Below, piece after piece: positions 9,383 through 43,710 of a stretch of 44,135 bases of DNA. The DNA lies in assembly GCA_021163645.1 (NCBI GenBank), contig JAGGTN010000029.1, forward strand, positions 1 to 44,135, in the 5' to 3' direction. Both the position numbers and the translations under genes were made by a program. The stretch is from Candidatus Micrarchaeota archaeon (GTDB lineage: Archaea; Micrarchaeota; Micrarchaeia; Anstonellales; JAGGTN01). A model generated the notes under the pieces. The model did not search any database, had not been told where the DNA came from, and saw only the letters and a list, made by a program, of their open reading frames with translations. Within the stretch, counting starts at the first letter, position 1, and each line of letters starts with the position of its first letter.

Positions 9383-9489
9383 AATATAATTTGGTTAATT
9401 TCATTTTTAAATGTTTTTTACACGTTTTATATATAGGAGTTTACACGTCTTAACCAAATAATCAATATCAACATATTAATTTAAGCAAA

Positions 9490-9547
9490 TAATCAAATCA
9501 ATCATCAACCAAAAACCAATAAAAAATCAGATGAACATGATAGTAAA
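9490..9547 (+). repeat. Copy B of the ~58-nt CA-rich intergenic element
   Basis: aatcaaatcaatcatcaaccaaaaaccaataaaaaatcagatgaacatgatagtaaaa differs from copy C (14099-14156) at 3 positions. Confidence 0.85.
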
Positions 9548-9555
9548 AATAGAAA

Positions 9556-12787: not shown

Positions 12788-12940
12788 TGGGCTTGGATGG
12801 GTTGAGTTGTTTTTTGGTTTTGATTGAGTTGATTTGTTCTTTTGGTTGGGGTTGGATGGGTTTTTGTTTTTTGTTTGGCTTGGATTGCTTTCTGGGGTTG
12901 GATTGTGTGATTGGTTGAGTTGGTTGGGTTTGGGTTAGAT
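12788..12940 (+). repeat. Almost pure G+T low-complexity intergenic tract
   Basis: About 150 nt with only 5 C and roughly a dozen A, made of TTGG/GGTT runs such as ggttggggttggatggg and gggcttggatggg. It shares short motifs with the reverse complement of 35097-35200. Confidence 0.85.
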
Positions 12941-12998
12941 TTCATTGTGATGGAATATGATTTGATTTAATGATTTGTATAATTCGGAGGTTGATGAT

Positions 12999-14090: not shown

Positions 14091-14098
14091 CTTATTTT

Positions 14099-14156
14099 AA
14101 TCAAATCAATCATCAACTAAAAACCAATAAAAAATCAGATGAACATAACAGTAAAA
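14099..14156 (+). repeat. Copy C of the ~58-nt CA-rich intergenic element
   Basis: aatcaaatcaatcatcaactaaaaaccaataaaaaatcagatgaacataacagtaaaa, located 9 nt after the top6A stop. Confidence 0.85.
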
Positions 14157-15585: not shown

Positions 15586-15620
15586 AATGTTTAAAGTAAA
15601 GGAAAAAACATGGTGTGTTT

Positions 15621-16016
15621 ATGATAATATTAGCTGGTAAACGCGAAGATATTATCAAGATGATAGATCATCATCCTGAGATTACAGAAGTTTTTATTAA
15701 GGTTAAACCAAGTACTAAAATGTTAGCGTATCTATTAAATAATACGAACTTAAAAAAAATATATATTAGTAAAAATATATATCGAACAATTCCTTCCAAG
15801 GTAATTAGAGCGTTGGATGATATGAAAATTCGTGTTGAGATTGTTAAGCTCAAGCAGGGAAGACCTTTTGAGATAAATGATTTTATAATCAAAAGGGCTT
15901 TTAAACTTAAGGAGAGAGGTATGTCTGTAATTGACATCTCCCGAAAGCTTGGGATAAGCAGAAGGACATTGTATTATAGGTTTAATAAGATTGCTGGGCA
16001 TTCAAAAAATATATAA
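15621..16016 (+). CDS. Small DNA-binding protein with a resolvase-type C-terminal helix-turn-helix
   Basis: The C-terminal segment ERGMSVIDISRKLGISRRTLYYRFNK resembles the HTH of serine-recombinase/invertase-type proteins. No catalytic recombinase domain is present. Confidence 0.6.
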   Translation: MIILAGKREDIIKMIDHHPEITEVFIKVKPSTKMLAYLLNNTNLKKIYISKNIYRTIPSKVIRALDDMKIRVEIVKLKQGRPFEINDFIIKRAFKLKERGMSVIDISRKLGISRRTLYYRFNKIAGHSKNI

Positions 16017-16067
16017 ATGTTCCTGAGTAAATATTGTTCTTGGTATTCTCAGCTTGTACTGAGAATA

Positions 16068-16175
16068 TTACCTTCATGCCCCGGTCAGACAACCTTTTTT
16101 GGTTGTAACCCGTGGCATTCGTTACCTTCATGCCCCGGTCAGACAACCTTTTTTGGTTGTAACCCGTGGCATTCG
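16068..16175 (+). repeat. Two identical 54-nt tandem units, plus a 17-nt third partial copy running into tRNA-Asn
   Basis: Unit ttaccttcatgccccggtcagacaaccttttttggttgtaacccgtggcattcg occurs at 16068-16121 and 16122-16175, 100% identical. Each unit contains the tRNA leader and 5-prime end (tcatGCCCCGGT) and folds as a hairpin. Confidence 0.9.
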
Positions 16176-16185
16176 TTCCACTCAT

Positions 16186-16356
16186 GCCCCGGTAGCTTAG
16201 TGGTAGAGCGTTCGGCTGTTATGCACATTCTTTCATAAGGAAAGAACCTGCGCTAAGAAATAGAAGTTTTTTATGGAAATAGAAGTACTGGGAGAAAACT
16301 AGGGTCCTTTCAGTCCCGAAACCGAAAGGTCGGCGGTTCGAATCCGCCCCGGGGCG
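16186..16356 (+). tRNA. tRNA-Asn (anticodon GTT) with a 99-nt intron at the canonical 37/38 position
   Basis: Hand-folded. Acceptor GCCCCGG/CCGGGGC, D-arm GCTT-AGTGGTA-GAGC, anticodon stem TTCGG/CCGAA with loop CT-GTT-A|A. Variable AGGTC, T-arm GGCGG-TTCGAAT-CCGCC, discriminator G. Exons 16186-16221 and 16321-16356; intron 16222-16320. No encoded CCA. Confidence 0.8.
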
Positions 16357-16380: not shown

Positions 16381-17172
16381 GTGGTGATTTATGTGGCAGA
16401 ATTTATTTTATCAAAGAAGTGGAAAAAACAAGGATGGAATTTTGATAAGAAATTCATTGTGGCGGATGATGCATCTTTTTTTATTGTGCTAAATGAGTTC
16501 ATACCAGAAATTCAGGAAGGTATATATTCTTTATTTGATACTAAGGGAATTGAAAAGCTTCTGAAAGATTATAATTATCAAATATGTAAATTACCAAATA
16601 GTCGTAAAATGGCCGGGTATGTTAACATGCCTCGCCATTTCATAGAATTGATGAAACCGATGATTGTATATGCAATATTGAAAAAAGAAGGATTATTACC
16701 TTGGTTCAACCAACAATACCTGGCTAAAAAGTTAGGGATTGTTATACCAAAACATACATCGAGTGGTATTGATTATGAGAACATCAGTTTAATAAGCAAC
16801 TATGATAAATTTGTTAGTATTAAAAAATTGGCAATTGAAGATGACACAACTGTACATGATACTCTATCTATGTTTGTGAGTATCATGTATTCTTTATTGA
16901 ATATGCGTAGTGAACTGATAAGCAAGCTTGGTATGGATGAATCCATACCGGATGAGTGTAGAGAACTTAATCTATCCAAGAATTTCAAAGGTCTCTCCAA
17001 GCTGATAGATTATGCGAAGAAGAATAAATATTCTCCTATCATTCTTAATAAGCTTCTTAATAATATTGGTATGTCTCCATTTATAGATCCTAATAAGTTT
17101 AATTCGGTATATAAGGATCCAGAACTCAAATATCTGAAGATAAAAGTCAAAAGGAAGAAGAGGAAGAAATGA
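16381..17172 (+). CDS. Hypothetical protein with a Lys-rich C-terminal tail
   Basis: 263-aa ORF with a GTG start in the track, ending KIKVKRKKRKK. No recognised motif. Confidence 0.55.
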   Translation: MVIYVAEFILSKKWKKQGWNFDKKFIVADDASFFIVLNEFIPEIQEGIYSLFDTKGIEKLLKDYNYQICKLPNSRKMAGYVNMPRHFIELMKPMIVYAILKKEGLLPWFNQQYLAKKLGIVIPKHTSSGIDYENISLISNYDKFVSIKKLAIEDDTTVHDTLSMFVSIMYSLLNMRSELISKLGMDESIPDECRELNLSKNFKGLSKLIDYAKKNKYSPIILNKLLNNIGMSPFIDPNKFNSVYKDPELKYLKIKVKRKKRKK

Positions 17173-17263: not shown

Positions 17264-18835
17264 ATGAATGTCAAGGGTGCTTCAGATGGCAAGAGAGAGT
17301 TTTATATAACTACTCCAATTTATTACCCAAATGCCCTACCGCATGTTGGTACGGCCTATACGACGATAATTGCTGATTTTGTTGCAAGATTTAAACGTTC
17401 TCAGGGTTATGATGTTTTTTTCCTTACTGGTAATGATGAACACGGAATGAAAATTGCTAGGGTTGCTGAGAAAAATGGGATGACTCCACAAGAATTTGTT
17501 GATGGGTTGGCAGAGAAATTCAAAGATGTATGGAAGCAATTGGGAATAACCTATAATCGTTTTATAAGAACAACTGATAAAGATCATGAGAAGACAGTGA
17601 AGGAAATCATTATAAAATCAAACAAAAACGGGGACATATACAAAGGATATTACGAAGGATATTATTGTGTTGATTGTGAACAATATTATACTGAAAAAGA
17701 TTTAGTTGATGGTAAATGTCCAATTCATAACAAGCCATTGGAGATATTGAGTATGGAATCTTATTTCTTTAAATTAAGTGCATATCAAGACAGGTTATTA
17801 AAATTTTATAAAGATAATAAAGAATTTTTACCTTCCAAGTATAAGCAAGAGGTTATTAATAGGGTAAAGAAAGGATTGAGGGATATAAGTATATCCAGGC
17901 CTAAGAGGTATCTTACATGGGGGATTGAATTTCCACTTGATCAGAATCATGTGACTTATGTTTGGTTTGATGCTCTCACCAATTACTTAACAGGAATAGG
18001 TTATTCATGTAGCGAGAATGAAAAGAATAAAGAAATGTTTAACAGATATTGGCCCGCTGATATTCATTTCATTGGTAAAGATATTACCTGGTTTCATTGC
18101 GTGATTTGGCCTGCGATACTGATGTCAGTAGGTTTGCCATTACCAAAACGAGTAGGGATAAATGGTTTTCTTAGCGTTGATGGCCAGAAGATAAGCAAAT
18201 CTTTAGGCAATGCTATTGATCCTGTATCTATTTGTGATTATTATGAAACAATTGATGTTCTGAGATATTATCTACTTCGTGAGATCCCTTTTGGTAGTGA
18301 TGGAGATTTTTCACGTTCCTCATTAAAAGAAAGGTATAATAATGAGCTTGTAAACGAATACAGTAATCTTGTAAATAGGGTGTTTGTCATGTTCTCAAAA
18401 TATTGTTCTAAATCTCATAATGGCAATATTGATTATGATGACAGTTTATGGCAAGGTACTGATGAGATAATCAAATCTTACATCAAACATATTGATCGAC
18501 TTGAATTTAAACAAGCCATAGATACGATCTGGCAATTAATATCTAAAGCTAATTCTTACATAAATGAAAAAGAACCTTGGAAGCTTGCGAAAGGAGATGA
18601 TGGATCAGGAAATGGATTAGAAAAAGCAGCTAAGGTCATTTATTCATTAATAGAATATCTCGGGATAATAAATAGTCTATTTGCTCCAATCCTTCCATCA
18701 TCTTCTGAAAAACTTGCTAAACATCTTGGTTTAAAAGAGCCTATTCGTATATCAGAATTGAAACAGTTTGGTAAGAATATTGATATTGATAGGGTGAATC
18801 ATAAGGGTCTTATTTTATATAGAAGAAAAGAATAG
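17264..18835 (+). CDS. metG: Methionyl-tRNA synthetase
   Basis: HIGH-region variant YPNALPHVGTAYT, KMSKS variant KISKSLGN, zinc knuckle CVDCEQ..CPIH. 523 aa with no C-terminal Trbp111-like extension. Confidence 0.95.
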   Translation: MNVKGASDGKREFYITTPIYYPNALPHVGTAYTTIIADFVARFKRSQGYDVFFLTGNDEHGMKIARVAEKNGMTPQEFVDGLAEKFKDVWKQLGITYNRFIRTTDKDHEKTVKEIIIKSNKNGDIYKGYYEGYYCVDCEQYYTEKDLVDGKCPIHNKPLEILSMESYFFKLSAYQDRLLKFYKDNKEFLPSKYKQEVINRVKKGLRDISISRPKRYLTWGIEFPLDQNHVTYVWFDALTNYLTGIGYSCSENEKNKEMFNRYWPADIHFIGKDITWFHCVIWPAILMSVGLPLPKRVGINGFLSVDGQKISKSLGNAIDPVSICDYYETIDVLRYYLLREIPFGSDGDFSRSSLKERYNNELVNEYSNLVNRVFVMFSKYCSKSHNGNIDYDDSLWQGTDEIIKSYIKHIDRLEFKQAIDTIWQLISKANSYINEKEPWKLAKGDDGSGNGLEKAAKVIYSLIEYLGIINSLFAPILPSSSEKLAKHLGLKEPIRISELKQFGKNIDIDRVNHKGLILYRRKE

Positions 18836-19376: not shown

Positions 19377-20540
19377 TTATGGCTTATAAATATAATCATT
19401 GATTCTGTTTTTTGCTTTCTCTCTTTTCTTCTGATGTTCATCTAAGAAATTGTTTAGTTTATCAATAAGTATTTGTTTGAGTTCACCACTCAGTAATCTT
19501 CCATCTTTATAATCATCATGTATTTTTTTGAGTTTATCATCATCTTCTTCGAAGAATGTGAGCCATTGATATGAAACATCTATCTCAGGAATCCCTCCCA
19601 ACTTTCGATGTTTTTCAACTGTTTCACGACCTCCAGAAAATGCATACTTATTAATTTTTCTTTTAACCGTTTCCTTATCATCAATTGTGTATATAGTTGA
19701 TTTCTCGTTAGATGATGACATCTTTCCCTGTTCTGTGATGCCGCCAAGCCCGGGAAGGAAAATACATTCTATTGATGCTGGTTTGTAATAGCCTAATCTT
19801 GGAATAACATCACGGGATATCCTAAAATGCGGATCTTGATCTACTGCATGAGGGATAAGACATGGCCGATGGGTTCCTTCTAAAACATTGGGTAGGAATG
19901 CTGGCACTGCTTGCATGGCAGTATAGAATATCGCTCCTATATTCTGTTCGTTTCCAAAGCCAAAAGTTGCTTTTATTGTTGAGAAGGTTATCCGTTTAGC
20001 TACCTTTATTGCTTCTGGATACATGATCCCAGCATGTTTAGTATCTATTAGAAAATGTGTTTTTTTAGGATCAAATCCTAATGCGATAACATCAAGCATA
20101 TTCTCGTATACCATGTTTTGCACTTGTTCCAGATTTAAGTTTCTTTTCATGAGAAATTTTTCTTCGTCTGGAAACTGAAACCATAGTTCAGTATTGAATT
20201 TATCTTGTAGCCATTTGGTAAACAACCAAGGAATTAAGTGACCGATATGTGTATATCCTGATGGTGCACGTCCAGTATATAGAAAGAATTTATTACCTTT
20301 TTCATATTCATCTAATATAATATTCATATCCCTATGTGCAAAAAAAATCCCTCGCCTTAGGAAATAATGAAGTTTTCCAGTATGCTTCTTAATTCTATTC
20401 AGTAATTCATCATCTATCTTTGATAATCCAAAGTCTTCGATTAGTTTATCGTAATTAATGTCTCCCTTAACCTGCCAAGGTGTTACTATTGTTTCCTTTT
20501 TATCATTTTTCTCGTTTTCAAGATTCATCTTATCCACCAT
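19377..20540 (-). CDS. trpS: Tryptophanyl-tRNA synthetase (archaeal/eukaryotic type)
   Basis: Class I motifs GRAPSGYTHIGHLIPW (HIGH) and KMSSS (KMSKS). 387 aa. Confidence 0.95.
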   Translation of the reverse strand: MVDKMNLENEKNDKKETIVTPWQVKGDINYDKLIEDFGLSKIDDELLNRIKKHTGKLHYFLRRGIFFAHRDMNIILDEYEKGNKFFLYTGRAPSGYTHIGHLIPWLFTKWLQDKFNTELWFQFPDEEKFLMKRNLNLEQVQNMVYENMLDVIALGFDPKKTHFLIDTKHAGIMYPEAIKVAKRITFSTIKATFGFGNEQNIGAIFYTAMQAVPAFLPNVLEGTHRPCLIPHAVDQDPHFRISRDVIPRLGYYKPASIECIFLPGLGGITEQGKMSSSNEKSTIYTIDDKETVKRKINKYAFSGGRETVEKHRKLGGIPEIDVSYQWLTFFEEDDDKLKKIHDDYKDGRLLSGELKQILIDKLNNFLDEHQKKREKAKNRINDYIYKP

Positions 20541-20550
20541 TTATTTTTGT

Positions 20551-20602
20551 GTATAAATCCTATATATCCAGACAGTAAAATGCTCATAAAAATCTGCATT
20601 TT
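20551..20602 (-). promoter_or_regulatory. 52-nt conserved terminator/promoter-like cassette, copy 1 (between the KaiC-like stop and the trpS start)
   Basis: gtataaatcctatatatccagacagtaaaatgctcataaaaatctgcatttt. The first 43 nt are identical to 30942-30984. The minus-strand reading has T-runs (ATTTTTATGAGCATTTTAC) followed by the TATA-like GGATATATAGGATTTATAC. Confidence 0.6.
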
Positions 20603-20603
20603 A

Positions 20604-21491
20604 TTATCTTCTATTCTTTTTTGTTATCCCCTTCATTTTAATTCCTTCATTGCCTATCGTGAATGATTGAATAGTGTTATCATAATTGATGCCTCTCATC
20701 TTAATGATTTCAATATAATGTTCTCTTTTACGTTTATCATTTGCGCGTTCGTAACCTAGATAGATATAACCATCAGTAAGGGATTCAATTCCAGATATAC
20801 TTCTTGGAACTCTATAGTCTTGCCATTTACCGTTGTCTTCGGCTATGAATAATGTTGTCGTATTCCAACCTCTTGCTCTTTCTATGAATTTAATTAATGA
20901 CCTTCTTCTATCTAATTCGTTATCATAAAGTAATCCAAGTATTGTTATTGGGTCTATCAATACTCTTGTTATATTTGATTGTAATATCATTTTATGTACA
21001 ACATCATTCTTTATTATGAGCTGTTCTATTTCATCTACAGGAAATTCTACAAACAATAATCTTCCTTGCTTTTCAAGTTCGGATATATCCCATCCCAATC
21101 CTTTCATGTGTTTCAACGATGCTGTTTTATGCTCTTCAAAAGAAATATACATAACATTCTCATCATTCTTTATCCCTTCCATCAGAAACTGCATTCCCAA
21201 CGTTGACTTTCCCGAACCAACGTCTCCATTTATTGTTATCACACTACCCAATGGATATCCCCCTTTGAGTATTTTATCAAGCTGTTTAACGCCAGTTGAT
21301 ACGAATTCTGTTATTCTCCTCTTTCTTTTATTACTCCCTTTTTTCTTATGTTTTCTCATATTTTTCTCATTTCTTAATCTTTTAAGCTCTTCTTCAACTG
21401 TTTTTAATACCTCCTCTTCATCACCTTCTTTTACTTTTTCTTCATCATCATCTTCAGGATAAATACCAAATGATACTTCCATATTCATCAC
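20604..21491 (-). CDS. KaiC/RadA-like RecA-superfamily ATPase with a charged N-terminal extension
   Basis: Walker A GDVGSGKST in GGYPLGSVITINGDVGSGKSTLGMQF. Walker B-like RVLIDPI. The N-terminal ~60 aa are acidic then basic (KHKKKGSNKRKRR). Confidence 0.8.
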   Translation of the reverse strand: MMNMEVSFGIYPEDDDEEKVKEGDEEEVLKTVEEELKRLRNEKNMRKHKKKGSNKRKRRITEFVSTGVKQLDKILKGGYPLGSVITINGDVGSGKSTLGMQFLMEGIKNDENVMYISFEEHKTASLKHMKGLGWDISELEKQGRLLFVEFPVDEIEQLIIKNDVVHKMILQSNITRVLIDPITILGLLYDNELDRRRSLIKFIERARGWNTTTLFIAEDNGKWQDYRVPRSISGIESLTDGYIYLGYERANDKRKREHYIEIIKMRGINYDNTIQSFTIGNEGIKMKGITKKNRR

Positions 21492-25728: not shown

Positions 25729-27165
25729 TTATCCTATTGAGAAATGTTCTGTAATCATTCGGTAAGTCTGCATTCCATCCTTATCGATCAAATGGTTAAG
25801 TAAATCTTTGTTTTCCTTTTCGAATTTGAAAATCTTTCTAATACCTGATGGTTCAGTGTAGCCGAATTTATCCAATGCTAATTTAAGATCCTTGTTTTTC
25901 TTAGCGGCTTTTAATAAGGGAATGCCTTTATTGACCGAATCAACAGCATATCTCAACGCCCTAGCCCCTGCGGCTGTTCCTTTTGGGTGGCCATGCACGC
26001 CTCCCCCTGCTTGAATGATGATATCCTTGCCATGTAATGCGACAAGATTATCCACCATACCAGGGTTTACTCCACCCGATGTAACAGGGAATATTGGCTT
26101 GATATGTTTTGCGAATTTAAAGTCCAAAGAGCCTAAATATAATTTTTCTTTTCCATTATGTTTAACTGCAACATCGTGGAATCTTTTTATCAGCATAGGA
26201 GAGCCTTCCATCTTTCCAACACCTGTTCCAATATGTAATTGGTCTACTCCAATCATTCTATAAAATTTTTCATAAACCTGAAAGTTAACACCAAAATTAC
26301 CACGTTGATGTGCAGAGTATCCTGCTCTGTGTGCATGGATGATTAGTCCTAAATTATGTACATAATTTACCATAGAGCATAATGCCGGCATGCCCATAAC
26401 ATAAACATCCATCATCACCATTTTCCCACCGTTTTCATATACATAATCTACTCTGTCTTTCATCCTATCGATATCAGAATCAGTAATATTCGTCGCATAT
26501 AATTTCTTCTCACCTGTAATCTTTTCAGCGCGATTTAATGCTTTCATTACTTCATCGAACCTATCCTTCCACCTGCAAAATTTCTGGTCGACAAGATTTT
26601 CATCATCCTTAACAAGATCTAATCCATTACTCCACGCTTTATATGCCACATTTGCGAATTCTTTAGGTGTGAGGCCTACCTTTGGTTTTACGATAGTTCC
26701 TGTATGCGGTCTTCTGGATTTGGTTGTACCCAGATATTTTCTTATTCCGTTTATACCGAATTTTGGGCCCTTGAATTGTTTTTGATATTTAATAGGAAAA
26801 GAAATATCCATTATATAAAGATCATACAGTTCTTTCAATCCGAATAGATTGCCCATAACGCTTGCCTGAAACTGAAGGATATTTTTCGCATCAAAATGTT
26901 CATATGGATATGCGATGAAAATAAATCCAGAATTGTCTGTTACCTTAATTAGTTTATAAACACGTGCTTTGTATTCAGTGAATACTTTCTTGTTCATTGT
27001 TGATATCTTAGTCCAAGTGCCTACGGAACTTTCAGATGCTATCGCTTCTGCCAATTTCTCAAGCTTAAATTCACCTGAGGCATAGATAAGTACTTTAAAA
27101 TCAGTTTCTTTAGTTTTATATTTTAAATCAAGATAGTTATACCCGCCATAAGTCATAAGAATCAC
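25729..27165 (-). CDS. rbcL: Ribulose-1,5-bisphosphate carboxylase large subunit, form III or II/III-like
   Basis: Active-site motifs GTIVKPKVGL, GLDLVKDDENL (carbamylated Lys), IHAHRAG, GGGVHGHP. There is no small-subunit gene nearby. 478 aa; the start may be the internal MTYGG. Confidence 0.93.
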   Translation of the reverse strand: MILMTYGGYNYLDLKYKTKETDFKVLIYASGEFKLEKLAEAIASESSVGTWTKISTMNKKVFTEYKARVYKLIKVTDNSGFIFIAYPYEHFDAKNILQFQASVMGNLFGLKELYDLYIMDISFPIKYQKQFKGPKFGINGIRKYLGTTKSRRPHTGTIVKPKVGLTPKEFANVAYKAWSNGLDLVKDDENLVDQKFCRWKDRFDEVMKALNRAEKITGEKKLYATNITDSDIDRMKDRVDYVYENGGKMVMMDVYVMGMPALCSMVNYVHNLGLIIHAHRAGYSAHQRGNFGVNFQVYEKFYRMIGVDQLHIGTGVGKMEGSPMLIKRFHDVAVKHNGKEKLYLGSLDFKFAKHIKPIFPVTSGGVNPGMVDNLVALHGKDIIIQAGGGVHGHPKGTAAGARALRYAVDSVNKGIPLLKAAKKNKDLKLALDKFGYTEPSGIRKIFKFEKENKDLLNHLIDKDGMQTYRMITEHFSIG

Positions 27166-30915: not shown

Positions 30916-30941
30916 CTTATCACCTCCTTTTTTTTAATTAA

Positions 30942-30993
30942 GTATAAATCCTATATATCCAGACAGTAAAATGCTCATAAAAATTCGCATTTT
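30942..30993 (-). promoter_or_regulatory. 52-nt conserved terminator/promoter-like cassette, copy 2 (between the trxB stop and the gdhA start)
   Basis: gtataaatcctatatatccagacagtaaaatgctcataaaaattcgcatttt has 2 mismatches to 20551-20602. Confidence 0.6.
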
Positions 30994-31038
30994 CCTGTCA
31001 TTTACGATTTCTCCTCTAACAACCATTAAATATTTAAA

Positions 31039-32566: not shown

Positions 32567-34342
32567 TCAAGCTGTCCTCTTAAACTTCTTTTCCATCTCG
32601 CCCCAACCTATTCTTATTATAGTTGGTCTTCCATGCGGACATGTAAATGGGTTATCACATTTTGAAAGGTCATTTAACAAATCTCTCATTTCAGTTATGG
32701 TCATTTCATGACCTGCCTTGATAGAAGCTCTACAAGATTTGGTGGCTATGCGATTATCCAATATCTCTTCAATTAATTTGATACTATTATCCCTTTTCTC
32801 ATCATAAAAAGAGATGATTTCATCAAGAACATCTTTAAAGAGCTTGATAGGAAGAGCATTATTGAATATGACGGGTATTGTATTGATTCTGTATGCATTA
32901 GGACCGTATTCTTCAATATCATACCCATACCGTTTCAATAATCTGATATGTTTTATTATTGCTAGTTGTTCTGTTTTGTTTGCCTCGAATATGACTGGTG
33001 ATAATAATTTTTGAGTTGATAAGGCATTATTCTTCAACTGTTTCATGAACCTCTCGTAATTAACCCTTTCCTGACTGGCATGCTGGTCTATGATGAAAAG
33101 TCCGTCAATATTCTCAGCTAGGATGTATGTTTTATTAACCTGTCCGATTATTTTTAACTCTGGGATTTGATGTTTGATATGGCTAAAAGGACCAGGTGAA
33201 TGAGAATGATTAGAATAAGATGGTTTTATCATCTGTTTTTCCGAATGAGTAATTGGAGTCAATGGTAATATTTTCTGGTTTGTTTTATCTGGCTTGTATG
33301 CTTTTTGCGGTTTTGATAGACTGTCTTCAGCATCGACGGTCACTGTCAGGTCATTCTTGCTCAATGAACTGTTTACTGATTGTTCTATCATACCTATTAG
33401 TTCGTTTTCATTCTTGAATTTAATCTTTCTCTTGGATGGATGGATGTTTACATCAATATCCTCTGGTGGTAAGTATAGTTTTAATATGATCACTGGATGC
33501 CTATTGAGGAATAATTTATTCTTATACCCTTTATAGACAGCATCGATAACTTCTTTTGATATTACGTATCTATCATTAACGAAAATAACTTGATAATTTT
33601 TTGTTTTCTTTGTATAACCAATTTTGGATATATATCCATTAATTTTCACATTACCAAAATGTGCATCAATAGGAATAAGATTCTCTGTAATCTCCCTACC
33701 AAATACATAGTATATCTTATCAAGTAAGTTGTTTGATTTAGGTGAATTAAAAACCTCTTTTCCATCTCTGTATAGATGAAATGATATGTTAGGGTTTGCC
33801 AATGAATAATTCCTTATCAAATGGATGATATGAGAAAATTCAACTTCCTCAGATTTCATAAATTTCAATCTAGCCGGGAACCTGGAGAATATATTCCTGA
33901 CAGTGATAACTGTTCCATCATTTATAGATACATTAACATCATTTTTGGGATTACCATTTTCATCATACTCCACTCTAACTCCAGTACTATTCCCAGATGT
34001 TTTTGATGCAACCGTAATATCTGCAATAGCCGATATACTAGCCAATGCCTCACCTCTAAATCCTAGTGATGTTATGTTAAAAAGGTCATCAATTGATTTT
34101 ATCTTGCTTGTTGAGTGTCGTTTCACGCATACCATTAAGTCATCATGGTTCATTCCTTTACCATTATCGATAACTTTTATCAATCGTTTACCACCATGCT
34201 CAACAAAAACCTTAATATCATCGGCGTTTGCATCAATTGAATTTTCAATGAGTTCTTTGACCACAGAAACTGGTCGTTCTATTACTTCTCCAGCAGCTAT
34301 CTTTTCAACCAGTTCTTTTGGAAGATGAATGATATTTCCCAA
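32567..34342 (-). CDS. mutL: DNA mismatch repair protein MutL (endonuclease-type)
   Basis: GHKL N-terminus IAAGEVIERPVSVVKELIENSIDA and DNGKGM. C-terminal endonuclease motif DQHASQERVNYE (DQHAxxExxxxE) and FTCPHGRP. TTG start 5 nt after GGTGA. Confidence 0.93.
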   Translation of the reverse strand: MGNIIHLPKELVEKIAAGEVIERPVSVVKELIENSIDANADDIKVFVEHGGKRLIKVIDNGKGMNHDDLMVCVKRHSTSKIKSIDDLFNITSLGFRGEALASISAIADITVASKTSGNSTGVRVEYDENGNPKNDVNVSINDGTVITVRNIFSRFPARLKFMKSEEVEFSHIIHLIRNYSLANPNISFHLYRDGKEVFNSPKSNNLLDKIYYVFGREITENLIPIDAHFGNVKINGYISKIGYTKKTKNYQVIFVNDRYVISKEVIDAVYKGYKNKLFLNRHPVIILKLYLPPEDIDVNIHPSKRKIKFKNENELIGMIEQSVNSSLSKNDLTVTVDAEDSLSKPQKAYKPDKTNQKILPLTPITHSEKQMIKPSYSNHSHSPGPFSHIKHQIPELKIIGQVNKTYILAENIDGLFIIDQHASQERVNYERFMKQLKNNALSTQKLLSPVIFEANKTEQLAIIKHIRLLKRYGYDIEEYGPNAYRINTIPVIFNNALPIKLFKDVLDEIISFYDEKRDNSIKLIEEILDNRIATKSCRASIKAGHEMTITEMRDLLNDLSKCDNPFTCPHGRPTIIRIGWGEMEKKFKRTA

Positions 34343-35036: not shown

Positions 35037-35096
35037 AATTATCACCTCAACCATCTAGTTATTATCCAACTATAACCAAATCCATTTATAATATAA

Positions 35097-35200
35097 TCCA
35101 TCCCAGCCAAACCAACCCCAAACCAAATAATCCCAACCAACCAAAAAACAGCCCCAAGCCAATCAAGTCCAAGCCAATCCAAGACAAACAAATCAAACCC
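35097..35200 (-). repeat. G+T low-complexity intergenic tract (G+T on the minus, gene-sense strand)
   Basis: The plus strand is nearly pure C+A (ccaaaccaaccccaaaccaaataatcccaaccaaccaaaaaac...). The reverse complement shares ggcttgga, ttttttggtt and tttggggttgg motifs with 12788-12940. Confidence 0.85.
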
Positions 35201-35225
35201 TATTTGATTATTCTAATTATCTTTA

Positions 35226-43411: not shown

Positions 43412-43650
43412 CTTGATGTATAGATTTATAGGCATGACTCGATATATATAGATTTATAGCAATAGTTTTCATTTATTATAACGTTTCCTTTTATTCTGAC
43501 CGTTAATCTTGATAAGCCTAAGATAATTCGTTTATGTTAAATTCGTTTATCATTTAGTTTATCGTTTATATTTAATTCGTTTATATTTGGGTGAAATATT
43601 GTTAGGTATAAAGTATTAAGAATAAAATTTTAGTATTAAACTTTATACTG

Positions 43651-43710
43651 CCAGTAAAATGCTCATAAAAATTATGCTTATAAAAATTATGCTCATAAAA
43701 ATCCTATTTT
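43651..43710 (-). terminator. Cassette copy 3: T-run half only, with a 15-nt unit triplicated
   Basis: Shares cagtaaaatgctcataaaaat with copies 1 and 2. atgctcataaaaatt, atgcttataaaaatt and atgctcataaaaatc are tandem at 43659-43703. On the minus strand this gives three ATTTTTAT runs starting 5 nt after the Sec61-beta stop. No minus-strand gene follows. Confidence 0.5.

Follow-up and report, generated by a model that had tools for sequence, protein, structure and literature searches.

Tandem 54-bp units at the 5' boundary of an intron-bearing tRNA-Asn gene in a Micrarchaeota archaeon: a probable slippage-type duplication

Introduction

Hairpin-forming DNA is a classical substrate for slippage. 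Partial tRNA sequences have been described around archaeal integrative elements, where 44-bp repeats flank PYG1 in Pyrococcus yayanosii and integrase-bearing elements measure 9-23 kb (PMC9897764), and a 5' fragment of tRNA-Thr is found in Caldiarchaeum (PMC3293823). Further systems with which a short tRNA-like sequence may be compared are the acceptor/T-arm minihelices, the t-elements of plant mitochondria, mascRNA and the disrupted tRNAs of archaea. Here we analysed a window of 44,135 nucleotides (contig JAGGTN010000029.1 of assembly GCA_021163645.1), in which a tandem array of short units merges into the start of a tRNA-Asn gene, and compared this locus with the systems above.

Results

The locus is chromosomal DNA of an uncultured DPANN (Micrarchaeota) archaeon. 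Proteins of Candidatus Micrarchaeota MAGs share 81-85% identity with its TopoVI-A, and the runs that contain the locus are hydrothermal-vent and marine-sediment metagenomes. Genes in the window include those for TopoVI B and A, LeuRS-like, MetRS and Trp/TyrRS synthetases, a KaiC/RadB-type ATPase, ScpA/B, UDG, the large subunit of RuBisCO and MutL. A Pfam search of the 30 larger ORFs, which cover most of the 44-kb window, found no integrase, transposase or other mobile-element gene. The array is preceded by the gene of a small HTH protein (DUF1699_N-like plus HTH; 15615-16016, forward strand), which is syntenic with TopoVI in the closest relative but is not followed by a tRNA there. Downstream of the tRNA gene lie a lineage-specific ORF of 263 aa without Pfam match (16381-17172, forward strand) and then the gene for a bacterial-type MetRS.

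The tRNA-Asn gene (anticodon GTT; 16186-16356, forward strand) has exons at 16186-16221 and 16321-16356, separated at the canonical 37/38 position by an intron of 99 nt (16222-16320). Rfam model RF00005 matched 16186-16356 with 57.5 bits, the anticodon loop containing an insertion of 100 nt. The anticodon loop CU-GUU-AA gives the tRNA its Asn identity, and the cloverleaf of tRNA-Asn(GUU) reads GCCCCGG-UA-GCUU...GAGC-G-UUCGG-CUGUUAA-CCGAA-AGGUC-GGCGG-UUCGAAU-CCGCC-CCGGGGC-G, with no CCA encoded in the gene. The exon borders were confirmed by an intron-less homologue in metagenome run X5, which joins 16221 to 16320. ARAGORN with default settings missed the gene, and with introns allowed (-i) it reported the same span with the intron placed inside the anticodon, so that the gene was called Tyr. 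This matters for annotation, as this intron-bearing tRNA-Asn is missed or mistyped by default tools.

Using Tandem Repeats Finder we located a tandem array with a period of 54 and 2.3 copies at 16068-16193. Unit 1 (16068-16121) and unit 2 (16122-16175), both read on the forward strand, are 100% identical, and each is composed of 6 nt, a 12-nt copy of the tRNA 5' boundary (16074-16085 in unit 1) and a 36-nt hairpin-forming part. The partial third copy (16176-16193, forward strand), which merges into the tRNA-Asn(GTT) gene, consists of the real tRNA leader (TTCCACTCAT) and tRNA positions 1-8 and matches the unit start at 15 of 18 positions, the final 12 nt being exact. A repeat search found these 12 nt, TCATGCCCCGGT, three times, at 16074, 16128 and 16182; they comprise four leader bases (TCAT) and tRNA positions 1-8. 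The 36-nt non-tRNA part is present at only two sites in the 44-kb window, and none of 100 shuffles gave a match. These searches confirmed the initial annotation in its description of two 100% identical 54-nt units plus a partial third before tRNA-Asn, and also in the anatomy that it gave for the unit, namely the leader and exact 5' acceptor strand, a CCGTGGC one substitution away from CCGGGGC, and an ACAACC-T6-GGTTGT hairpin.

A further inverted repeat (16041-16071, forward strand) was seen in the RNA fold of 16040-16185, in the interval from the HTH stop codon to unit 1. It has a 12-bp stem with the core ATTCTCAG-cttgta-CTGAGAAT, its 3' arm shares the first bases of unit 1, and as DNA it reaches -7.0 kcal/mol (z = -5.3). 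The 169-nt spacer upstream of the tRNA is in this way occupied by three consecutive stable hairpins. A peptide reading of the unit was rejected, with ATG-CCC-CGG... giving only an unsupported 10-codon ORF per unit. C/D-box snoRNA-like matches on the minus strand (15995-16083) stayed at 15-20 bits (E about 1), where the gathering thresholds are 42-60, and were considered chance matches.

The array is real and not an artefact of assembly. An independent ENA scaffold is identical across the region, and a contig from a different sample contains the same two units and the partial third copy, with one SNP in unit 1 (16073 T>C) among six SNPs in 1018 nt. We also estimated the number of units from Logan contigs, where n units are expected to give a 31-mer multiplicity of n inside the unit, n-1 at the unit-unit junction and 1 in the flank. 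The internal, junction and flank depths were 41.5, 22.8 and about 20 in run X1 (about 2.1 copies), 10.3, 4.4 and 5.5 in run X5 (about 1.9 copies), and 17.7, 11.2 and 6.1 in run X3 (about 2.9 copies). Run X4 had internal depths of 20-23.5 and a junction depth of 12.9, and its estimate of about 2.7-3.1 copies is based on the left flank only (7.5; the right-flank contig had 22.4). Run X2 (internal 56.5, junction 32.5, flank 15-26) gave an intermediate estimate with two flanks that disagree. The internal depth minus the junction depth was close to the flank depth in X1, X3 and X5, and in X5 a minor variant of unit 2 with T5 in place of T6 was seen. About two copies in X1 and X5 versus about three in X3 and X4 are a hint, not a result, that unit number varies between natural populations, the figures coming from low k-mer depths (6-20x) and short contigs of 56-58 nt.

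The part of the unit that demonstrably comes from the tRNA is limited to the 12 nt of TCATGCCCCGGT; the other 42 nt resemble neither the tRNA body nor its intron or trailer to a significant degree. The six bases before TCATGCCCCGGT agree with the real leader at three of six positions, which is chance level. For the remaining 36 nt, local alignment was no better than with shuffles against either the tRNA 3' exon plus trailer (p = 0.17) or the whole tRNA gene plus flank (p = 0.48), and an origin of this part from the tRNA 3' half, the intron, the trailer or the rest of the window was rejected for lack of any significant alignment. The heptamer CCGTGGC does match CCGGGGC at six of seven positions (p = 0.004-0.018). 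When the two leader bases are included, the 3' segment of the unit matches the reverse complement of ATGCCCCGG at eight of nine positions (p about 0.0004-0.002), versus seven of nine for the true tRNA 3' end plus trailer (CCGGGGCGT). The apparent 3' acceptor heptamer is, with an equal or slightly better fit, rather to be read as an inverted complement of the leader and 5' strand. The initial proposal that the units are internally deleted copies of the tRNA has support for the 12-nt 5' piece only (12 of 12 identical), the remaining 36 nt aligning no better than shuffles (p = 0.17-0.48). On the basis of these comparisons the most fitting description of the unit is a copy of the tRNA 5' boundary and an inverted copy of the same piece, flanking an unrelated perfect hairpin, and not a tRNA with its middle deleted.

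We used folding predictions to compare the unit with a tRNA minihelix. The full hairpin of unit 1 (16076-16118, forward strand) has an outer stem ATGCC.CGG / CCG.GGCAT, an inner stem ACAACC (16089-16094) / GGTTGT (16101-16106) and a T6 loop (16095-16100), and that of unit 2 (16130-16172, forward strand) is the same. The 39-nt acceptor-stem-plus-hairpin fold put forward in the initial annotation is indeed the MFE structure, with -16.6 kcal/mol (z = -3.1) as RNA; the full 54-nt unit reaches -19.9 kcal/mol (z = -5.0) as RNA, and the unit hairpin -9.5 kcal/mol (z = -3.7) as DNA. In this MFE structure a 7-bp stem with a C-U mismatch is separated by a 4x3 internal loop from a 6-bp stem, which a U6 loop closes. 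The outer stem continues past the tRNA part by two pairs (A-U and U-A at -2/-1), and the 5' end of the acceptor-like strand is therefore not free.

The real acceptor/T-arm minihelix of tRNA-Asn is an unbroken 12-bp helix with a 7-nt T-loop and -32 kcal/mol. Substrates of RNase P, tRNase Z and the CCA-adding enzyme have an intact stem, a coaxial junction, a T-loop and unpaired positions -1/-2, and the unit differs in each of these. Of a coaxial 7+5-bp acceptor/T stem, a 7-nt T-loop of the form UUCRANY, a free 5' leader and an unpaired discriminator, which together characterise a minihelix, the unit does not have the combination. Using Rfam cmscan at E <= 10 we found no tRNA, tmRNA or tRNA-like match in 15990-16200, and the sole tRNA-model score at the locus was that of the real gene (16186-16356). 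The unit hairpin is, as far as the predictions go, a stable fold but a poor minihelix. The view that it has the shape recognised by tRNA-processing enzymes is weakened by the C-U mismatch, the 4x3 internal loop, the U6 loop, the paired -1/-2 positions and the absence of an Rfam match.

The array is specific to one species. No match to the unit or to the tRNA start was found in IMG/VR, phage and plasmid collections, and no second context for the unit in seven metagenome runs. The search for the unit in relatives that had been suggested at the outset found it only in strains of the same species (about 99% identical), so that no homologue from diverged relatives with stem-supporting covariation, as a conserved structured ncRNA would have, came to light. 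The closest relative with a long contig (TopoVI-A 85% identical) has kept TopoVI-B and TopoVI-A together with a 465-aa gene and the HTH gene, directly beyond which lies a convergent helicase gene; tRNA and repeat are absent there, and synteny stops exactly at the HTH-tRNA intergenic region. More generally, relatives reached through TopoVI-A and MetRS homologues showed synteny up to the HTH gene, or the ORF-MetRS pair, with tRNA-Asn absent from those loci; one of them has the ORF-MetRS pair without a tRNA. The sole detected homologue of the 263-aa ORF (64% identical) is on a 774-bp contig that has a tRNA-Asn 3' exon and intron directly upstream of the ORF and ends inside the intron. Searching GTDB genomes through MetRS led to Bacillota loci, the enzyme being of bacterial type, and gave nothing useful.

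Three other tRNA-Asn genes from the same metagenomes, seen as loose ends in contigs of the runs, have a single-base difference in exon 1, and in two of them position 37 is followed by intron sequence. The 30-mers upstream of all three are unrelated and contain neither TCAT nor the unit. Because TCAT was copied too, while near-identical tRNA-Asn genes have unrelated upstream sequence, the 12-nt copy was made from this tRNA-Asn gene and within this lineage. A scan of JGI metagenomes with the 25-nt tRNA 3' exon returned only two unrelated tRNAs, one bacterial and one an archaeal tRNA-Asn.

Presumed promoters in the window read TTTAWATA or TATAAA and lie about 25-33 nt before start codons. We found no canonical TATA box 25-35 nt upstream of tRNA-Asn and nothing promoter-like within about 110 nt, the best TATA-like candidates being TATATAAA (16010-16017), which lies where the HTH ORF ends, about 170 nt before the tRNA, and TAAATATT (16029-16036). 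Since no promoter-like element lies within about 110 nt, the units are probably located in a long pre-tRNA leader. With no TATA box at 25-35 nt, the units are either part of the transcript or bear the promoter, and are therefore not entirely irrelevant to expression. When the folding of such a long precursor is predicted, the true 5' strand has the extra GCCCCGG strands as competitors for the single perfect 3' acceptor strand. A local complement in the unit that sequesters the extra strands is a plausible reason, suggested by this predicted fold, for the persistence of the inverted copy.

Discussion

Taken together, these observations point to a lineage-specific tandem duplication of the slippage type that arose in situ at the 5' boundary of tRNA-Asn and has no dedicated function, an explanation that we consider probable, with only moderate confidence. 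The cause would be replication slippage or template switching promoted by the hairpin. The two full units differ at 0 of 54 positions and the tRNA-proximal partial copy at three of its first six. Because the units are 100% identical while the tRNA-proximal copy matches at 15 of 18 positions and exactly over 12 nt only, two events of very different age are suggested. In the older one the 12-bp TCATGCCCCGGT would have been placed 54 bp upstream of the gene, beside a spacer with the inverted copy and the inner perfect hairpin, by template switching with an inverted copy, by a short insertion with a 12-bp target duplication, or as a recombination scar. In the recent one the whole 54-bp block 16068-16121 was duplicated head to tail, with microhomology of TT at the junction only. 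This two-step history is drawn from one species, the single-unit ancestral state not having been recovered in any relative.

The extent of the recent duplication follows from the middle copy, which has the distal hexamer TTACCT and not the tRNA-proximal TTCCAC. A crossover between the 12-bp cores would have given the middle copy TTCCAC, so that exactly 16068-16121 was duplicated. A junction with TT only is what slippage or illegitimate recombination at a hairpin typically leaves. The number of units probably still differs between natural populations (two to about three). If the block lies in the leader, each extra GCCCCGG strand would be held in its own local hairpin during transcription and would not compete for the 3' acceptor strand, and the whole leader would be lost by the normal RNase P cut at 16185/16186. 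A neutral history alone does not account for the inverted complement (8/9, p about 0.0004-0.002), for which template switching or selection is needed, and the predicted stability of the hairpin beyond that of shuffles (z = -5) leaves room for function.

Among the three explanations offered in the initial annotation, it is the type of a duplication or recombination scar that fits best. A scar of insertion or site-specific recombination at the tRNA 5' end, in which TCATGCCCCGGT would be the att core or a pair of target-site duplications with the remnant of a deleted element between them, later amplified by slippage, is nevertheless unlikely. The exact 12-bp direct repeats around a non-tRNA segment and the synteny break exactly at the HTH-tRNA intergenic region are what such an event would leave, and the inverted repeat of the unit could be a pair of recombinase binding sites. 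Archaeal tRNA genes are also often targets of integration, with partial tRNA copies left behind (PMC9897764; PMC3293823). The known archaeal fragments, however, are about 44 bp long and surround integrase-bearing elements of 9-23 kb, while those described here measure 12 bp and are 54 bp apart. Moreover, Pfam found no integrase or transposase in the 30 larger ORFs, the 42-nt filler matched no entry of IMG/VR or of the phage and plasmid collections and turned up in no other context in the source metagenomes, and the junction of the recent duplication is unlike that of a crossover between 12-bp cores. Neither repeats of tens of base pairs around an integrase-bearing element nor the adjacent sequence on a mobile element elsewhere was found.

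Similarly low is the probability we give to a cis-regulatory module, in which the hairpin and T6 would separate the HTH gene from the tRNA as a terminator or insulator, or would supply or space the tRNA promoter, the duplication tuning tRNA-Asn output. Oligo-T tracts are an established termination signal in archaea, and the T6 of unit 1 is the first T run of at least five after the HTH stop codon, at +79. The T6 of unit 2 lies at -37 to -32 from the mature tRNA 5' end, about the position of a TATA box, and between GAATATTA (16064-16071) and the tRNA, a distance of about 110 nt, no better TATA is present. The three consecutive stable hairpins in the spacer would also suit such a module. Yet the tRNA intron has a T6 of its own (16267-16272), so that T6 runs cannot be efficient terminators here, and the presumed promoters of the window do not read CTTTTTTGG. 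The other tRNA-Asn genes in the samples have a normal TATA at about -30 without the module, as does an unrelated archaeal tRNA-Asn, where a standard TTTAAATA box is found without the repeat. The motif TTTTTTGGTT occurs at 6 sites versus 0.44 expected; it was rejected as a recurrent terminator, as this enrichment comes from the antisense of Lys-rich coding sequence and from G/T-rich spacers.

That the units work as tRNA mimics, sharing a transcript with the tRNA from which RNase P and tRNase Z would release minihelices of ~39 nt, or as decoys, is conceivable by analogy with t-elements or processing signals of the mascRNA type and in our judgement very improbable. An exact 5' acceptor strand, a near-complementary 3' strand and a stable fold would be expected of such RNAs, as would the position directly upstream of a tRNA with a probably long leader, and a close relative has an RNase P protein (Rpr2). 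Against this, there is no coaxial 12-bp helix and no T-loop motif, the stem has a C-U mismatch, -1/-2 are paired with +73/+74, and Rfam gave no tRNA or tRNA-like match at E <= 10. The unit is also missing from related tRNA-Asn loci, and its 100% identity reflects youth and not conservation. Just as improbable are acceptor mimics embedded in the leader that would have a job there, either as excised RNAs of ~39 nt resembling t-elements or as co-transcriptional acceptor-strand decoys whose number would set the productive folding of pre-tRNA-Asn. Such decoys, if true, would amount to an attenuator, variable in copy number, of a single-copy tRNA in a DPANN archaeon with a reduced genome. The locus would bear on the biology of tRNA mimics only if discrete processed transcript ends or conserved copies in relatives exist.

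Finally, collapse or expansion of the repeat by the assembler can practically be dismissed: tandem arrays longer than the k-mer are beyond what short-read assemblies can size and the depth ratios differ from run to run, but the same two-unit structure recurs across independent assemblies from different samples and assemblers, one with a unit-specific SNP, and the unit-to-unit junction k-mers had the expected depth in at least six runs.

If the slippage-type duplication is indeed the right reading, the case is mainly a matter of annotation, in that a duplication which is prone to form hairpins and lies at the boundary of a tRNA can pass for a minihelix derived from that tRNA. It would also offer a modest case from nature in which tandem duplication is still under way where an essential single-copy gene of a DPANN archaeon begins. 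The locus raises the question where the tRNA-Asn promoter is located and how a leader with two extra acceptor strands avoids misfolding.

The disrupted tRNAs of archaea (split, permuted and multi-intron, in Nanoarchaeota, Thermoproteales and ARMAN/Micrarchaeota) share with this locus a DPANN host and a long intron in the tRNA, but here the gene is contiguous except for one intron at a canonical position. The upstream units hold only 8 tRNA bases and have no BHB-forming partner, and are therefore not exons or tRNA halves. A reading of the repeated GCCCCGGT as an alternative 5' exon was accordingly rejected, inspection having found no pairing partner for a bulge-helix-bulge at the putative junctions. 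With acceptor/T-arm minihelices, plant mitochondrial t-elements and mascRNA the unit has in common a hairpin-closed stem of acceptor sequence between an mRNA gene and a tRNA gene; it differs in having no continuous 12-bp stack, T-loop or conservation and in its stem mismatch and paired -1. The tRNA fragments of archaeal integrative elements likewise form a partial-tRNA direct repeat beside an intact gene in an archaeon, at a synteny breakpoint, whereas here the repeat is 12 bp instead of about 44 bp, the copies are 54 bp and not kilobases apart, there is no element or integrase, and the unit is amplified in tandem. Slippage duplications of the minisatellite/VNTR kind resemble the array in their identical head-to-tail copies, the 2-nt microhomology at the junction, the stable hairpin, a seemingly variable copy number and the restriction to one species. 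The difference is that the unit described here overlaps the functional start of an essential tRNA gene and also contains this start as an inverted copy, from which its acceptor-like look comes. Among the known systems, an ordinary short tandem duplication straddling the start of a tRNA is the best fit to this locus.

Synteny with the closest relative and origin of the MetRS gene

Comparison of the window with L028, the contig of the closest relative, showed that the two share TopoVI-B, TopoVI-A, a gene of 459/465 aa and the HTH gene, and that the stop codon of the HTH gene marks the exact point where this synteny is lost (16017 in the window, 12929-12930 in L028). Past the breakpoint L028 carries a convergent DEAD/ResIII helicase in place of tRNA-Asn, the repeats, the lineage-specific 263-aa ORF and MetRS. 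The MetRS (17264-18835) is of bacterial type and its best matches in GTDB genomes are from Bacillota, with 42-47% identity. Its closest homologues (64-65% identity) come from short contigs of uncultured origin; among these, L036 retains the lineage-specific ORF upstream. We consider it likely that this MetRS was acquired horizontally.

Immediately 3' of the HTH gene, and overlapping the start of the first 54-nt tandem unit, lies an inverted repeat with a 12-bp stem (16041-16071; core ATTCTCAG-cttgta-CTGAGAAT). Possible roles for it are a palindromic site for protein binding or a hairpin at a transcript end.

The intron of tRNA-Asn

The tRNA-Asn gene (16186-16356) has an unusually long intron of 99 nt (16222-16320) at position 37/38. 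ARAGORN missed the gene with default settings and mistyped it as Tyr with the -i option. Inspection by eye showed no obvious bulge-helix-bulge motif of clean canonical form. Inside the intron a T6 run (16267-16272) has the direct repeat GAAATAGAAGT on both sides (16257-16267 and 16276-16286).

Dispersed repeats, G/T-rich spacers and other encoded proteins

An intergenic repeat family of approximately 59-90 nt (TAATCAAATCAATCATCAAC.AAAAACCAATAAAAAATCAGATGAACAT...) is dispersed in the window, with two direct copies that are 95% identical (9463-9548 and 14092-14156) and a third, inverted copy (548-637). Another repeat, of 74 nt and 84% identity with the common core TATCCAGACAGTAAAATGCTCATAAAAAT, occurs at 20540-20613 and 30931-31004 and partially at 43644-43673. 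It is located in the promoter regions of a Trp/TyrRS-like gene and a glutamate dehydrogenase gene, and could be a regulatory element common to both.

The window also encodes homologues of the RuBisCO large subunit (25729-27165) and MutL (32567-34342), their host being a small-genome DPANN archaeon. Additionally, two spacers of approximately 170-190 nt between co-oriented genes (12788-12975 on the + strand, 35055-35225 on the - strand) are G/T-rich on the sense strand, with TTGG/GGGTT-type sequence and G-runs. Insertions specific to the lineage, or sequence prone to form G-quadruplexes, are possible readings of these spacers; in the closest relative TopoVI-B and TopoVI-A are spaced by only 33 nt.
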